Of a stretch of DNA of 64,000 nucleotides, positions 52,187 through 59,499 are shown one piece after another. The stretch is from assembly GCA_963792965.1 (NCBI GenBank), contig CAWBYW010000007.1, positions 224,001-288,000 of the forward strand, given 5' to 3'. The notes under the pieces are model-generated. The model did not search any database. It worked only from the letters and a program-made list of their open reading frames with translations, and was not told the DNA's origin. The position numbers were made by a program, and so were the translations under genes. Numbering within the stretch: position 1 is the first letter of the stretch; every line of letters starts with the position of its first letter. The DNA comes from an uncultured delta proteobacterium. GTDB taxonomy: Bacteria; Desulfobacterota; Zymogenia; Zymogenales; Zymogenaceae.

Positions 52187-53849
52187 TTATTTCTTGCCGG
52201 GGGTATATCCCTCCACCGTCACATCCGAAAACACCTTCTTGATATTTCTTGTCGTATCCGATTCGAGGAGATCTCCGGAAGGATCTTTCTTTTCCGAGAC
52301 CATCGGTACCTCTTCGCGCTCGGGCCCCTCATAGTGACCCCCTTCGACGCCGACGAGAGAAACCGCAAGCTCCCTCTTGAAATATTCCCGAAATTCGCTC
52401 TTGATCTTATCGAGCTTTCCCTGTCCCCCGATCAGGTGGGTATACTTTTGAGGCATCTTAATGACGACGACGTCCTCTTCGATATCGATCGAAACCGCGT
52501 GTATCAAGTATGAATGCGTTATCGGGTCCTTTCCGACGAGATAGGAAAGGAACGCCTTTATGCTGTCGGCAGAATTCGCATCCTTCTTTTCCTCACCGAC
52601 AGCCTCTTTTCCCTGCTCGGCTTGCACGGTCGGCGCCCGCTGTGTGCCCACCGGGGCCTGTGAGAAGTCAAAAGAGAGGGCCTTCGTATCAGATGGCGGT
52701 ATATCAAACGCCTTCATGTCCAGTCGGGAGAGCCTCTCGATCGCCTCCGCTATCGGCTCGACGTAGCCCATGCGGGTCATCTTGATGAGAAGGAGCTCCA
52801 TGGCGATTCGCGGGTCCGTGCTGGTCCTGATCGAAAACTCCGCCGAAAACAGGACATTGAAGATCAGCGTCAGCTCGTCGAGCGTGAGGGCGTTTCCGAT
52901 CTCGGTGAGCTCCTGTCGTTCCTCGGCCGTGAGGTCCGGCGTCGATATCGTGGGGGCCGCCTTTATGAGGAGCTGGTTTCGCATCAGGTCTACCAGCTCT
53001 CGGTAGTACTGGGCGATGTCATACCCCTGGTTATACACGTCGGACAAAAGATAGATTGCCAAGGACGCGTCCCGCCCCGCCAGCGCCGCCACCATCTTGA
53101 AAAGGAGGGAGCGGTCCGTCAGCCCTAACACCTCACGAACGGCCTCCTCCCCCAGCGTTGCCCCGGAGTAGCCGATTACCTGATCCAGGAGGCTTTGGGC
53201 GTCGCGCATGCTTCCCCCCGCCTCCCGCGCGATCACCGAAAGGGCGCCGCCCGATACCGCAATCCCCTCTTTTTCGGAGATTTCCAGGAGTCTCTTTTCG
53301 ATCTCCACGGCGCTGATCCTCCGAAAATCGAAGCGCTGTGTCCGCGAGAGGATCGTGATCGGGATTTTATGAGATTCGGTCGTCGCGAAATATAAAGATT
53401 ACATGGGACGGCGGCTCCTCGAGTATCTTGAGCAGCGCGTTGAAGGCGTTGATGGACAGCATGTGGACTTCATCGATGATGTAGATATTGTAGCGTCCCG
53501 CCGACGGCAGGTAACGGACGTTTTCCCTGAGCTCCCTGATATCGTCGACGCCCGTGTTCGAGGCCCCGTCGATCTCATAGACGTCGGTAACGCTCCCGTC
53601 GGTGATGCCTTTGCACATGGCGCATTCGTTACAGGGCTGGGGCGTCGGACCTTTTTCGCAGTTGAGCGCCTTGGCCAGGAGCCGCGCGACGGTGGTCTTC
53701 CCGACCCCGCGCGGGCCAGAGAAGAGATAGGCATGCGCGATCCTTCCCAGCGTGATCGCGTTTTTCAGCGTCCGGGTTACGTGCCCCTGGCCGACTACCT
53801 CTTCAAAGGTCTGCGGCCTGTATTTTCTCGCGATTACAAGGTATGACAT
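52187..53849 (-). CDS. dnaX: DNA polymerase III gamma/tau (frameshift near 53388)
   Basis: [29 protein letters not shown]; removing one T gives [24 protein letters not shown] and joins 52187..53308. Confidence 0.94.
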
Positions 53850-55194: not shown

Positions 55195-55344
55195 TCAGAC
55201 GTAATAGCGCGGCAACATGGAGGGAAGCGCCTTGATCTGCTGGCGCAGAAATATTTTTTTCGGCTTGCTCATCAACAGGTATCGGAGCCATCCCAAAAGG
55301 CCGAGCCCCACGATAACGGCAACGATAATCAATAGGACCTTCAT
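55195..55344 (-). CDS. 49-aa single-TM microprotein, copy 2 (absent from the ORF track)
   Basis: MKVLLIIVAVIVGLGLLGWLRYLLMSKPKKIFLRQQIKALPSMLPRYYV; AAGGAGG RBS; paralogue at 56930-57079. Confidence 0.85.
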   Translation of the reverse strand: MKVLLIIVAVIVGLGLLGWLRYLLMSKPKKIFLRQQIKALPSMLPRYYV

Positions 55345-55357
55345 ATATCCCTCCTTC

Positions 55358-56857
55358 TTACTTTTCGTATTTTCGAATGAGCTCTTGTGCGATGATCGAT
55401 GAACAGATGACCGTCGGTACCCCGCCCCCCGGGTGCGTTGACGCCCCCACGAGGTAGAGCCCCTCGATACTCTTGGACTTGGCCGACGGGCGGAAGACGC
55501 CCGAGTGTCCCATGTCCTGGGCCAGGAGGTAGATGCCCCCCTCGGGGGCCAGGAGATCCCGCTCGAAATCCCTCGGCGTCCCGAGCATGGCCACCTCCAC
55601 GTGATCTTTCATCCCGGGCAGATAGGTGCGGTCAAAATAGTCGACATACTGTTCGGTCATCCTCTCCTTTTCCTTGTCCCAATCGGTCCCCGCAAGATGG
55701 TACGGCCCGAATAACGTCATCACAACCGTGTGGTGCCCCTTGGGCGCCATCCCGGGGTCCGAGTGGGTCTTCCAGCTGATGAGGCCCACCTGTCGGTCCG
55801 GCATCCGCTTTTCGATATTCATCTGATCATAGAAGAGATCGAATTCCTCGGGGGTCGCGGTCATGACGGAATGATGCGACTTAAGAGGGGGCGCCGTGTC
55901 AAGCCCGAGAAAGAACATAAGGGCAGACGGGGAGCTCTTCAGGCTCCTGACGCCACGGCGTGCCATCGGTCCGAGATGCTCCAGCCCGATCAGGTCGGTA
56001 TAGAGGGTTTTCGCGCTGATGTCGGAGACGATCACGTCGGCCGTTATGGATGTCCCATCGGCAAGCACGACCCCGCAGGCCCTCTTGTTTTTCACGATAA
56101 TCTTCTTTACAAGCATCCCGGTACGGAATTCCATGCCGGCCTTTTTGCTCACCCTCAGGATTGCCTCGGGGATCGCGATGAGGCCGCCTTTGCTATAGTA
56201 GAAGTCGTTGTGCTCGTTCCAGGGGAGTATAGAAAAGACCCCGGGGACAAGGGTGGGCGGCATCCCCATGAATGTCCCCTGGAAGCAGAGGATCTCCCGG
56301 ATAACGGGGTGTTTAAAATATTTATCCATCACCATCTGGTAGCTCGAGCCGAATAGTGCGCGATACTTTAAAAGCTTCGGCTCTTTTATGAACATGCCGA
56401 ACATGTCACCAAACGTGATCATCGGGGAATAAAAATAGGCCGGGATTACGCCGCTGAAGAAGTCCTCCATGTCGGCGGCATACCGAAACCAGCTCTTGGC
56501 GTCCTTGGGTGAAAGCTTCTTGAACTCCTCGGCTACCGCCTGACTGGAGGCCGGGTACGTAACCTCTGTCCCGTCCTTCAGGATATAGGTGTAGACCGGG
56601 TCTATGGGAATCAGGTCTACCTCCTTCGCAAGCGATGTTCCCATCCGCACAAAAAACTGGTCGATCACGTGCTCCATCTCGATGATGGACGTACCCACGT
56701 CAAACCGGTAGCCCTTGTGCTCGAAGGTGGAGCAAAACCCCCCGATCCGTTTGTTTTGCTCCAGTACGAGCGTCTTTCGGCCGTCTTTAGCCATGAGCCC
56801 GCCGAGGGAGAGACCCGCAATACCCCCCCCGATCACGATCACGTCATAGTCAGACAT
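55358..56857 (-). CDS. CrtI/phytoene-desaturase-family FAD oxidoreductase, copy 2
   Basis: YDVIVIGGGIAGL, LEQN..IGG, FDVG, LYLVGASTHPGGGVP. Confidence 0.88.
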   Translation of the reverse strand: MSDYDVIVIGGGIAGLSLGGLMAKDGRKTLVLEQNKRIGGFCSTFEHKGYRFDVGTSIIEMEHVIDQFFVRMGTSLAKEVDLIPIDPVYTYILKDGTEVTYPASSQAVAEEFKKLSPKDAKSWFRYAADMEDFFSGVIPAYFYSPMITFGDMFGMFIKEPKLLKYRALFGSSYQMVMDKYFKHPVIREILCFQGTFMGMPPTLVPGVFSILPWNEHNDFYYSKGGLIAIPEAILRVSKKAGMEFRTGMLVKKIIVKNKRACGVVLADGTSITADVIVSDISAKTLYTDLIGLEHLGPMARRGVRSLKSSPSALMFFLGLDTAPPLKSHHSVMTATPEEFDLFYDQMNIEKRMPDRQVGLISWKTHSDPGMAPKGHHTVVMTLFGPYHLAGTDWDKEKERMTEQYVDYFDRTYLPGMKDHVEVAMLGTPRDFERDLLAPEGGIYLLAQDMGHSGVFRPSAKSKSIEGLYLVGASTHPGGGVPTVICSSIIAQELIRKYEK

Positions 56858-56929
56858 GCTCACCTCTGCATATGGTGTTTGAGTTTCACTTTATCTTTTC
56901 GCGCCTCCCGTATCCGTCCGCTTTCATGC

Positions 56930-57079
56930 TCAGACGAAATAGCGCGGCAGCATAGAGGGCAGCGCCTTCAGCTGCTGCCTGAGGAAAACCTTCTTGGCTT
57001 TGCTCATAAAGAGATACCGGATAAACGCCAAAAGGGCGAGTCCCGCGGCCACCACAAGGACGATCCATACGGTTTTCAT
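56930..57079 (-). CDS. 49-aa single-TM microprotein, copy 1
   Basis: MKTVWIVLVVAAGLALLAFIRYLFMSKAKKVFLRQQLKALPSMLPRYFV; GGAGG RBS. Confidence 0.85.
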   Translation of the reverse strand: MKTVWIVLVVAAGLALLAFIRYLFMSKAKKVFLRQQLKALPSMLPRYFV

Positions 57080-57101
57080 CTTTTCCTCCATCCAGTCTCG
57101 T

Positions 57102-58589
57102 TTATTCGTGTTTCTTGATGAGGTCGGCCGCGATAACCGCCGATGCCATTGCCGCGGGAACCCCGCCGCCGGGATGCGTCGAGCACCCGACAAGATAGAG
57201 CTGTTTGATGCTCTTTGACTTGGCCGCGGGCCTGAAGATAGTCGAGTGGGCCAAGTCCTGTGAAAAGAGATAGATGCCGCCCTGCGGGGCCATAACCTCC
57301 CGCTCAAAATCCTTCGGTGTGCCGAGGAAAGCGACCTTGACGTGATCCTTGATCCCGGGCAGATAGGTCTTGTCAAAATAGTTGATGTACTCCTCCGTCA
57401 GCGGTCCCTTGATCTCATCCCAATCCGGACGGTATGCCCCCCCGATGGTCAGGACGAGGGTGTGATAGCCCTTCGGCGCAAGGGAGGGATCCGAGATTGT
57501 CTTCCAGCTGAAAAGCCCGAACTGCTTCTTAACCACAGTTCCTTTTGAGAGTATATTGAAATAGAGATCGTCGATATCCTCCGGCGGCACGGTCGCAATG
57601 GTGTGATGGGACTTAAGCGGCGGCGCGGCATCGAGTCCAAGGAACATCATGAGGGCCGAGGCCGATATCTCGAGGCTTTTGACCCCCGCCCGCGCCATCG
57701 GGCCAAGGTGCTCAAACCCTATCAAATCCGTATAGAGGGTCTTGGCCGAGATGTCCGATACGACGACGTCGGCCGTGATCGATGTACCGTCGGCGAGGAC
57801 GACGCCGCACGCCTTCTTGTCCCGTATGATGATCTTCTTGACGAGCGTGCCGGTCTTTAGTTCCATGCCGGCGCTGCGCCCCAGTCGCTCGATCGCCTTC
57901 GGCACCGATATCAATCCGCCCTTGCAGTAGTAAAAACCCGTGTGCTCATTATAGGGGAGCATCGTCATGATGCCGGGCGCCAAGGACGGCGGCAGCCCCA
58001 TGAAATTGGCCTGAAAACAGAGGGCCTCGAGTATCCGGGGGTCCTTGAAGTATTTCTCCATTACCGTCTGGTAGCTGGTGGCAAAGAGCGGCAGATATTT
58101 CAGGAGCCTCGGGCTCTTGACGAACATCCCGATCAAGTCCTTGAAGGTGAGCATCGGAGAGAAGAAGAACGTGGGCACCGCCGCGTCTATGAAACCTTTC
58201 ATGTCCTCGGCGTACCGGAACCAGCTCCTGGCGTCGTCGGGAGAGAGCTTCTTGAACTCCTCGGCGACCGCCGCAGAAACGGCCGGATAGCGGATCTCGG
58301 TCCCGTCCTTGAGAAGATATGTGTAGACCGGATCAAGGGCAATCAGATCCACTTCCCGAGCGGTAGTCGTCCCCATGAGCGTGAAAAAGCGGTCGTAGAC
58401 CTCCACCATCTCGATAATCGAGGTCCCGATGTCAAACTGGAAGCCGTCGTGCTCAATGGTCGAGCAGAAACCTCCGATCCGTTTGTTTTGCTCCAGCACG
58501 AGGGTCTTTCGACCGTCCTTGGCCATAAGGGCGCTGATAGAAAGGCCGCCGATCCCGCCTCCGACAACAATGACATCATAATCGGCCAT
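57102..58589 (-). CDS. CrtI/phytoene-desaturase-family FAD oxidoreductase, copy 1
   Basis: YDVIVVGGGIGGL, FDIG, LYLVGCSTHPGGGVP; start MADYDV with AGGAG-like RBS. Confidence 0.88.
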   Translation of the reverse strand: MADYDVIVVGGGIGGLSISALMAKDGRKTLVLEQNKRIGGFCSTIEHDGFQFDIGTSIIEMVEVYDRFFTLMGTTTAREVDLIALDPVYTYLLKDGTEIRYPAVSAAVAEEFKKLSPDDARSWFRYAEDMKGFIDAAVPTFFFSPMLTFKDLIGMFVKSPRLLKYLPLFATSYQTVMEKYFKDPRILEALCFQANFMGLPPSLAPGIMTMLPYNEHTGFYYCKGGLISVPKAIERLGRSAGMELKTGTLVKKIIIRDKKACGVVLADGTSITADVVVSDISAKTLYTDLIGFEHLGPMARAGVKSLEISASALMMFLGLDAAPPLKSHHTIATVPPEDIDDLYFNILSKGTVVKKQFGLFSWKTISDPSLAPKGYHTLVLTIGGAYRPDWDEIKGPLTEEYINYFDKTYLPGIKDHVKVAFLGTPKDFEREVMAPQGGIYLFSQDLAHSTIFRPAAKSKSIKQLYLVGCSTHPGGGVPAAMASAVIAADLIKKHE

Positions 58590-58763
58590 GTCTCTCTTCT
58601 CCTGTCTATGAATAGATAAATTTGAGCGTCTTGCTCTAAAATCCCGCCACCGTTTCCTCGGACTATGACCGGCACACCGTCGAATTGATCGCAATCCGAG
58701 CATCGTCCGCCCGAAAGCCCCTTCCCTGAGCATCCTGTGCTGTCGGCTGCTACAAGTCTTTCT

Positions 58764-59405
58764 TTACAGACGCGCCTTCTCGTTGTCTCCCTGTGGTTTG
58801 ATAAGCGCCATGATCATCACTTTAAAATAGGCGAAAAATGACGCGGTATCGGTCGCCTCCCGCGCTATGGAATAGGACATGGCAAATCCGTTGGCCATCG
58901 CCAGCATGATCGAGGCAAGAACATCCTCGTCTCTATCGAGCGAAAATTCTCCATCCTTTTTCGCCCGTCGAAACACATCGGCCGTCAGCTCCTTGATATA
59001 GACGTGCTGGGAGAATATCTCCTCTTTTCGCTTCGGGTTTTGGAGGCCAAGTATCGTCAGCTCCATGACGACGGTGAACCAATTGGGGTTCTTCTGTATG
59101 AACGTGTGAAATGACTCGATGAGCAGGTCGATTCTTTCTCCGATGGGAAGGGGCGCGTTCAGGACGGAAAGGGCGATATCGAGATATTCCGACATCGCAA
59201 ATCGGTAAATCTCACCGACCAGCTCATCCTTGTCTTTGAAATAGTAGTGGAGAAGCGCCTTGCTGATCCCCGCCTCACCCGCGATATCGGACAGCGAAAC
59301 GTTCACAAAGCCCTCGCGTCCCATGATGTTATAGGCTGATCGTATAATCGCCTGCACCCGCTCGGGTCTTTGACCTTTTTCTTCTTTTATGGCTTTCTGG
59401 GTCAT
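58764..59405 (-). CDS. TetR/AcrR-family transcriptional regulator
   Basis: SLSDIAGEAGISKALLHYYFKDKDEL helix-turn-helix. Confidence 0.92.
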   Translation of the reverse strand: MTQKAIKEEKGQRPERVQAIIRSAYNIMGREGFVNVSLSDIAGEAGISKALLHYYFKDKDELVGEIYRFAMSEYLDIALSVLNAPLPIGERIDLLIESFHTFIQKNPNWFTVVMELTILGLQNPKRKEEIFSQHVYIKELTADVFRRAKKDGEFSLDRDEDVLASIMLAMANGFAMSYSIAREATDTASFFAYFKVMIMALIKPQGDNEKARL

Positions 59406-59433
59406 GATAGTGATCCTCGTCTTGGTCCTGAAG

Positions 59434-59499
59434 TTCCTGACTGGCCGGCCGATCAGGAATTGACGTGCTAATGGTAATAAAGACCTGCCTCCATGTCAA
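59434..59499 (-). promoter_or_regulatory. tetR promoter with downstream 26-bp palindromic operator
   Basis: TTGACA-17-TACCAT (59499-59471); TTCCTGACTGGCC|GGCCGATCAGGAA at 59434-59459. Confidence 0.7.

Follow-up and report, generated by a model that had tools for sequence, protein, structure and literature searches.

A probable microprotein subunit in a distinct clade of CrtI-family flavoenzymes from uncultured, likely anaerobic bacteria

Introduction

Enzymes of the CrtI type, which serve in carotenoid engineering, are regarded as catalysts that work as single chains. Could a lineage of the family have a dedicated small partner? The question is raised by an operon in a 64,000-nucleotide stretch of DNA (the window; contig CAWBYW010000007.1, positions 224,001 to 288,000) from an uncultured delta proteobacterium, in which each of two CrtI-like flavoenzyme genes is followed by a gene for a 49-residue microprotein. 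A first-pass annotation made from the sequence alone had proposed a two-component enzyme, duplicated as a pair, with the microprotein as membrane anchor, quinone-access or substrate-channel subunit. Our analysis makes it probable that the microproteins are accessory subunits reserved for one separate clade within the CrtI family, with a tail predicted to sit on the lid over flavin adenine dinucleotide (FAD) and an N-terminus that likely tethers the enzyme to the membrane.

Results

The operon runs in the order tetR-E1-m1-E2-m2, read from the window sequence, with all genes on the minus strand. Its enzyme and microprotein genes are:

57102-58589, minus strand: E1, CrtI-family FAD oxidoreductase, 495 aa (TIGR02734, 309 bits; model of predicted local distance difference test, pLDDT, 93.4)
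56930-57079, minus strand: m1, 49-aa microprotein with an N-terminal transmembrane helix, a basic amphipathic helix and a PRYFV C-terminus
55358-56857, minus strand: E2, CrtI-family FAD oxidoreductase, 499 aa (TIGR02734, 323 bits)
55195-55344, minus strand: m2, 49-aa paralogue of m1 with C-terminus PRYYV

This layout was as first annotated, and the microprotein lengths, the 32/49 identical residues of m1 and m2, the 24/29 identities over their last 29 residues and the 12 synonymous codon differences in the tail (with 5 non-synonymous) were reproduced exactly; E1 and E2 are 66% identical. A ribosome-binding site had been claimed for each microprotein, and GGAGG lies 5-9 nt 5' of the ATG of both. 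E1 starts at an ATG after a purine-rich ribosome-binding site, giving 495 residues, and the open reading frame list begins it too far upstream, at 58733; for E2 an alternative GTG start is possible at 56863. The remark that this list missed or mis-started the microproteins holds for m1, given as a 148-aa frame with a TTG start, but not for m2, which is listed correctly. Both are already in a public protein collection as uncharacterised entries (P0005 and P0013) and had thus not been missed there. The purifying selection suggested earlier is borne out by the codons: the proportions of synonymous (pS) and non-synonymous (pN) differences between m1 and m2 are 0.74 and 0.10 in the tail, where synonymous sites are close to saturation, and 0.38 and 0.36 in the transmembrane part, which indicates no constraint between the two there. 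Across seven family members the whole-gene ratio of non-synonymous to synonymous rates (dN/dS) was 0.09-0.41 in 19/21 pairs with unsaturated pS. Selection on the microprotein is, on these codon comparisons, concentrated in the tail.

To follow the pairing beyond the window we used a forward test of 74 metagenome loci chosen by the enzyme alone, from the best 80 of 545 confirmed stretches. A microprotein adjoins the enzyme in 32/38 loci whose enzyme is at least 38% identical to E1, and a divergent microprotein lies upstream of the enzyme in 7/10 loci of a sister group (six recognised by eye and one, L090, through a profile not seeded with it). The divergent sister profile aligns with the main profile with a probability of 86% (E 5e-6). 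Neither form was found in the 26 more distant CrtI-like loci. Three of the six misses within the clade end at most 30 bp from the match and so offer no downstream sequence, one has no upstream DNA and two are true misses. A strict regular-expression motif recovers fewer loci (29/38, 1/10 and 0/26), and profiles were therefore used for the counts. In the reverse test, where the microprotein profile was run over 401 genomes of the phylum, all 22 strong matches (16 genomes) fell within 1.5 kb of a clade enzyme. Fifteen of these are at loci first found through the enzyme and the other seven are in G063, G099, G155, G214 and G297; together with two matches in G401 the latter make 9/9 near a clade enzyme among loci that did not seed the profile. 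None of 14 weak matches was near a clade enzyme, and a further sample of the same phylum yielded no additional strong match. Scanning genome contigs with E1 alone gave two loci only, and two Actinomycetota records carry consecutive accessions for microprotein and enzyme. The link outlasts changes in gene order, with the microprotein upstream in L072, L078 and the sister clade.

The microproteins form a family of about 30-55 residues, whose members begin with a hydrophobic stretch, continue as a basic amphipathic helix and finish in Arg-Tyr-x-x. Two overlapping profile searches gave 93 and 84 proteins, and a search of 1.84 billion representatives at 50% clustering gave 65 of 35-173 aa; two candidates, P0243 and P0272, were set aside as apparent chance or chimeric matches. 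Among 84 aligned members only the equivalents of R46 and Y47 are invariant. No Pfam or NCBIfam family fits these 84 (best E 0.0046 and 0.0037, with at most 6/84 members per family), the PDB holds no match to the microprotein (best E 0.27) and the Atlas gave no usable match. No representative is enzyme-sized (0/65), although a profile of 50 positions could overlook a weak fused form. We found no characterised family with this pairing, which would have taken away its novelty, in Pfam, NCBIfam, the PDB or the literature searched, whose coverage was thin for subscription journals and supplements. The pairing is real, widespread and apparently undescribed.

The enzymes belong to the broad CrtI family. 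E1 and E2 pass the 238-bit cut-off of TIGR02734 (crtI_fam), as do three other members (278-308 bits), and E1 stays far below the cut-offs of the carotenogenic equivalogs (CrtID 230/640, CrtD 171/580, carot_isom 122/587, CrtO 90/1000), as does E2. The E1 model has a CrtI/amine-oxidase fold with an N-terminal dinucleotide-binding motif; its closest folds are the gamma-carotenoid desaturase 4rep (TM-score 0.84) and Pantoea ananatis CrtI, 4dgk, which share its family at 20-25% identity by structure; the Foldseek E values for these two are 3e-37 and 3e-28. In a 100-sequence tree limited to enzymes of 400 aa or longer, shorter fragments being excluded and a distant paralogue serving as root, the 62 enzymes at least 38% identical to E1 are monophyletic (support 0.999), the sister group has seven members (support 1.0), and the two together (69) are monophyletic with respect to canonical CrtI-like controls (0.999). 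An enzyme search gave 444 proteins at E <= 1e-30, not all of them within the clade. The sources named for close homologues, all metagenome-assembled or Candidatus records, include Deltaproteobacteria (Syntrophales, Smithellaceae, Desulfomonilia), Chloroflexota (Anaerolineae, Dehalococcoidia), Spirochaetota and Actinomycetota (Geothermincolia), and the clade spans at least four phyla; these host groups are anaerobes.

That the enzymes are not carotenogenic had been suggested from the window, and it agrees with the genomes: phytoene synthase (PF00494, crtB) was found in none of five genomes, 85-99% complete, in a search positive for 8/14 controls. One crtB-like query matched none of 48 clade and sister loci and 2/26 control loci, one being its own. 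Since no crtB was found in these five genomes, carotenogenesis is, by gene content, probably not the role of the clade. The genome of the window, G000, also contains about ten more distant paralogues and one enzyme 47% identical to E1, behind which lies a third microprotein gene (L165:6813-8480; G000:C7, about 490.8-492.5 kb). This third pair is nearer to Actinomycetota- and Chloroflexota-type members than to E1 and E2 and has no adjoining TetR gene.

A predicted complex of E1 with m1 scored 0.84, 0.85 and 0.84, and the best of three controls 0.00; the mark for this score is met by 116/157 solved and 2/215 mismatched pairs and is a rough guide here, where our own alignments were used. The runs share at least 98% of their 65-68 contacts, with partner pLDDT of at least 84. 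Only residues 28-49 of m1 are confidently placed, the rest being uncertain and not excluded from contact. They face E1 residues 171-175, 201-203, 282, 286, 296-306, 336, 340 and 445-460, and the best residue pairs join R46, P45 and Y47 of m1 to G302, S305 and F452 of E1. P201, Y286, G302, S305 and R453 are invariant among 119 clade enzymes, and the helix at 296-306 carries a clade-typical GxxS signature where controls align gaps or charged residues; in a wider set, Ala replaces Gly at 302 in a few clade members (for example L080 and L082). In the sister group Ala is the usual residue at 302, and the peptides there retain the Arg and not the Tyr. It is unlikely that the score reflects recall of a like solved complex, as no similar solved peptide was found. 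The model supports binding without showing it.

Where does the tail bind? Mapped by hand through a sequence alignment, E1 282/286, 296-306 and 445-460 correspond to CrtI 276/280, 289-300 and 441-456. Apo-CrtI is disordered at 275-302, 331-343 and 426-455, its helices at about 276-282, 291-298 and 442-457 are expected to close over FAD, and binding of the cofactor is shown to be a single concerted process with association to the membrane (PMC3382138; statements on papers given by PMC number refer to their available text). The microprotein tail is thus predicted to bind the lid helices that close over FAD. The quinone-access or substrate-channel role proposed at first finds no echo in the model, where the confident contacts are on these helices instead.

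Do enzyme and microprotein keep to their own partners? Enzyme identity and tail similarity correlate over 39 unambiguous adjacent pairs (r = 0.80; 0/5000 permutations as high). More telling, from gene order and sequence, are the two-enzyme operons: four genomes carry the order enzyme A, enzyme B, micro B, micro A, while elsewhere enzyme A is found only with an A-type peptide (G053, G155, G214, G297, L094) and enzyme B only with a B-type (L084). All 8/8 assignments in these operons, which represent two lineages, match the single-pair loci. Linkage, co-divergence and complex model agree with the cognate two-component unit that the first-pass annotation had predicted; its duplication as a pair fits this genome, but the orthologues of E1 in G009 and L056 lack a microprotein that belongs to them. 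We also considered a small membrane protein that functions on its own and is only a companion of the enzyme gene. Linked genes can co-diverge without binding and blind-picked neighbours sometimes pass the complex test (7/44), but the link persists on either side of the enzyme and across phyla, no strong match was found away from the enzyme and, in the model, invariant residues of one chain contact those of the other, which makes this explanation improbable.

The transmembrane helix is dispensable in one clade. It is present in 34/39 pairs examined and missing in six loci (L058, L059, L062, L065, L079, L105), where versions of 27-35 residues carry a lysine run instead; in four of these the stop-to-stop frame is only 34-42 codons. 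Their enzymes are 77-84% identical to a Dehalococcoidia-labelled protein, and since the five present in the tree form one clade the helix was, on this phylogeny, likely lost once. Because it was lost there, the conserved function of the microprotein would be tail binding and not anchoring alone. The earlier proposal of a membrane anchor stands in part: it is likely for the transmembrane or basic stretch, but the helix lies outside the confident interface, is near-neutral between m1 and m2 and is absent from the six loci.

The retention of helix-less versions can also be read in favour of a regulator that acts at the FAD lid to inhibit or conditionally activate the enzyme and is not a standing subunit. 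Such a regulator would use the same predicted interface on mobile lid helices, and some clade enzymes have no adjoining microprotein. Yet in most loci only about 10-25 nt separate the microprotein gene from the stop codon of the enzyme gene, the two share an operon, and a promoter consensus scan found no separate promoter for it; this close spacing suits stoichiometric co-production. Cognate pairs are moreover retained in multi-enzyme operons, and we regard a regulator as unlikely, though the best placed of the alternatives. Only a little less probable is a transient assembly factor, which would load FAD or fold the lid before dissociating, so that one microprotein could serve several paralogues. 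It would account for unequal numbers of enzymes and microproteins and for a helix dispensable in one clade, and FAD loading with membrane docking is a single, failure-prone step in CrtI (PMC3382138); against it stand the paralogue-specific tails, the large predicted interface of 65-68 contacts and the helix kept in 34/39 pairs.

TetR control of the unit had been proposed, and the sequence upstream agrees with it. The regulatory features are:

59471..59499, minus strand: sigma-70-like promoter TTGACA-17-TACCAT, 5' of tetR (10/12 consensus match)
59434..59459, no strand assigned: palindromic operator-like site just 3' of the -10 box, candidate TetR site
58764-59405, minus strand: tetR, TetR-family regulator, 213 aa (PF00440, E 3e-12; position kept in G002, G005, G007 and G009)

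TTGACA and the -10 box stand at the same position in 4/4 relatives inspected, and the palindrome is kept in the same number (G002, G005, G007, G009), thus in 5/5 genomes with G000, where it has only one close copy. Given a promoter followed by a conserved, single-copy palindrome, the palindrome is likely the TetR binding site, at which the protein would repress the operon by local autoregulation. The upper end of the element as first annotated, 59459, is in fact the edge of this palindrome. No terminator was found 3' of m2 by consensus scan.

Discussion

Taken together, we consider the following mechanism probable. The C-terminal 22 residues of the microprotein would lie across the FAD-covering helices and clamp this lid, bridging it to the helical membrane-facing domain, while the N-terminal transmembrane helix or basic stretch likely holds the enzyme to the membrane. 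Binding would stabilise an FAD-loaded, membrane-docked state that canonical CrtI reaches alone in one concerted step, and the membrane-held enzyme would then act on a C=C bond of a chain that is likely a lipid or isoprenoid.

Several observations weigh against this mechanism. L080 and L098 have no microprotein despite 5 kb of sequence on both sides, and enzymes outnumber microproteins in three whole genomes (2:1 in G009, 3:2 in G041 and G022), so that a private partner is not obligatory. The transmembrane helix is absent in one clade and membrane tethering is therefore not universal. The sampled loci are kin and not independent trials (L061 and L081 are on one contig), and the co-divergence could come from shared descent of linked genes alone. 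The neighbouring genes vary widely and name no substrate; they are lipid-flavoured, none of them general. Of the catalytic candidates proposed for CrtI, R148, D149 and R152 (PMC3382138), the positions of R148 and R152 are variable and not conserved in the clade, and CrtI chemistry is thus not transferable.

The chemistry is the weakest step. The chemistry of the family and the lipid-flavoured neighbours make a hydrophobic chain that contains a C=C bond the likely substrate. The commonest neighbours over 60 loci are acyl-CoA synthetase (8), DUF362 (8) and ADP-forming CoA ligase (6), followed by FAD-linked oxidase, SDR and FadH/OYE (5 each), and no electron-transfer gene recurs with the pair. 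By analogy we tentatively favour a redox-neutral step dependent on reduced FAD (FADH2), either isomerisation or hydration. It was put slightly ahead because of the missing electron-transfer gene, because CrtI isomerises under anoxia with reduced FAD (PMC3382138) and because of MA0127 of Methanosarcina acetivorans, a phytoene-desaturase homologue that acts on membrane lipid chains in an anaerobe, outside carotenogenesis (PMC12777485), and is credited with hydroxyarchaeol formation in work cited there. MA0127 differs from E1 in being archaeal, its available description mentions no partner peptide, and the two are likened by description only. Quinone-linked desaturation comes only a little behind, level with saturation. 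In the five genomes PF02621 was found in none, menD was below cut-off in all (5/5) and a MenA-like prenyltransferase was present below cut-off. The MenA-like gene in G000 (L162:11930-12862; G000:C30), with menD and mqnA/D not found, may point to menaquinone made from a scavenged ring.

Could the microprotein be the substrate itself, a ribosomally made peptide modified by the enzyme with the tail as recognition sequence? A short, adjoining, co-diverging frame with an invariant C-terminal motif would fit. However, the neighbourhoods show no recurrent gene for a protease, an exporter or other tailoring, the lid and the helical domain take up the confident contacts, the variable part is a transmembrane helix, and D149 and H322/H323 of CrtI are kept as D151, H328 and H329 in the clade. 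We consider it the least probable of the alternatives, and very improbable in absolute terms.

How does the proposed enzyme with its lid-clamping subunit compare with known systems? It shares with CrtI an N-terminus of the non-covalent-FAD type, the D149 and H322/H323 equivalents and likely a membrane-peripheral mode. CrtI, however, is active when purified as a single chain and receives its phytoene from CrtB (PMC3382138), whereas in the E1 clade R148/R152 are not conserved, the genomes searched gave no crtB and the lid helices are predicted to carry a microprotein. Limonene dehydrogenase CtmAB (PMC4109377) and a delta-24 steroid desaturase (PMC11061730) are likewise COG1233-type tandem pairs, of anaerobic isoprenoid catabolism. 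They are heteromers of two chains of about 60 kDa that are 26-27% identical, in contrast to E1 and E2 at 66% and to a clade in which single-enzyme operons are common. Their flavin is covalent on the His of G-F-L/R-x-N/S-T/L-H-A, a place taken by Gly in 26/26 aligned enzymes; E1 and E2 lack this His. The activity of the delta-24 enzyme is fully soluble, and the available text reports no small subunit for it (PMC11061730). By sequence, the clade enzymes are neither carotenogenic CrtI nor members of this His-flavin group. The limonene system also has ctmC and ctmD, undetected hypothetical genes that may or may not resemble the microprotein.

By analogy, the microprotein would work most like CydX. 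CydX and CioY of bd-type oxidases are likewise small single-transmembrane proteins encoded just downstream of a redox enzyme and needed for its stability or activity, but they pack on an integral membrane subunit while the soluble tail of the microprotein is predicted on a peripheral flavoenzyme (PMC12648545). They share no common sequence family with it, and the words 'desaturase' and 'oxidoreductase' do not occur in the available text of that review.

If the mechanism is true, an enzyme otherwise known to act by itself would here come in two parts, and this would bear on the coupling of FAD loading to membrane docking, a stated open point of the CrtI structure paper (PMC3382138). A 22-residue peptide on the lid helices could trap the closed state for structure determination, and the pairing names a partner for co-expression. 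Hundreds of 'phytoene desaturase' annotations in uncultured anaerobes would be marked as something other than carotenogenesis, with the microprotein as a sequence tag for the clade. This leads us to speculate, at some risk, that a whole sister lineage of CrtI handed FAD-lid closing and membrane docking to a cognate microprotein encoded in trans, with its free C-terminal Arg-Tyr-x-x motif as an obligatory key. The heterodimers, misannotated as phytoene desaturases and inactive in assays unless the peptide is co-expressed, would then catalyse a so far undescribed C=C reaction, without oxygen, on membrane lipids or isoprenoids scavenged by anaerobes of sediments and digesters in at least four phyla.

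Gene neighbourhoods and additional observations

Eight loci (L044-L051; G022, G041, G053, G063, G099, G155, G214, G297) have operons with three to five flavoproteins of the COG1233 type, accompanied by FadH/OYE, SnoaL, SDR and DUF362 genes; some of the flavoproteins are fusions with a 4Fe-4S/pyridine-nucleotide domain (950-970 aa). The whole looks like a whole unknown catabolic pathway. One flavoprotein there (L044:549-2105 and orthologues) is a 518-aa COG1233 paralogue outside the clade that ends in a short aromatic and basic extension of its own, which may serve as a built-in membrane helix. FAD-linked oxidase and CCG Fe-S genes adjoin the pair or the enzyme in L061, L063, L093, L098 and L101, with two more flavoproteins adjoining in L093 and L101. 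Two distant lineages combine the pair with a GntR/FadR regulator and an unassigned glycyl radical enzyme below all cut-offs (L020:9225-12468, L075:11-4925). At three helix-less loci (L065, L079, L105) a 3-beta-HSD/epimerase-family gene lies 3-5 kb 3' of the enzyme; a gene near these loci presumably resembles a steroid 5-alpha-reductase by a motif, its fragment matching no family. In G000 two distant COG1233 paralogues (C7 659659-662339, C9 199010-201673) are each followed by a 385-aa protein that, by eye, looks like an FAD/NAD reductase with a C-terminal 2Fe-2S motif.

The segment 54002-54952 (minus strand) has a tRNA-Arg(ACG) directly 3' of the window operon and two tRNA-Ser that flank a tadA-like gene, an arrangement found also in relatives. 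Beyond it, at 52187-53849 on the minus strand, a dnaX-like gene is split into frames of 160 and 373 aa by an apparent one-base shift, and its orthologue in G009 is split at a different place; the split is probably an assembly error but may be a programmed shift. Near the third G000 pair, a 136-aa frame (L165:9819-10229, minus strand) has a twin-arginine-like leader followed by repeated Y-S-D-x units and resembles a peptide precursor.

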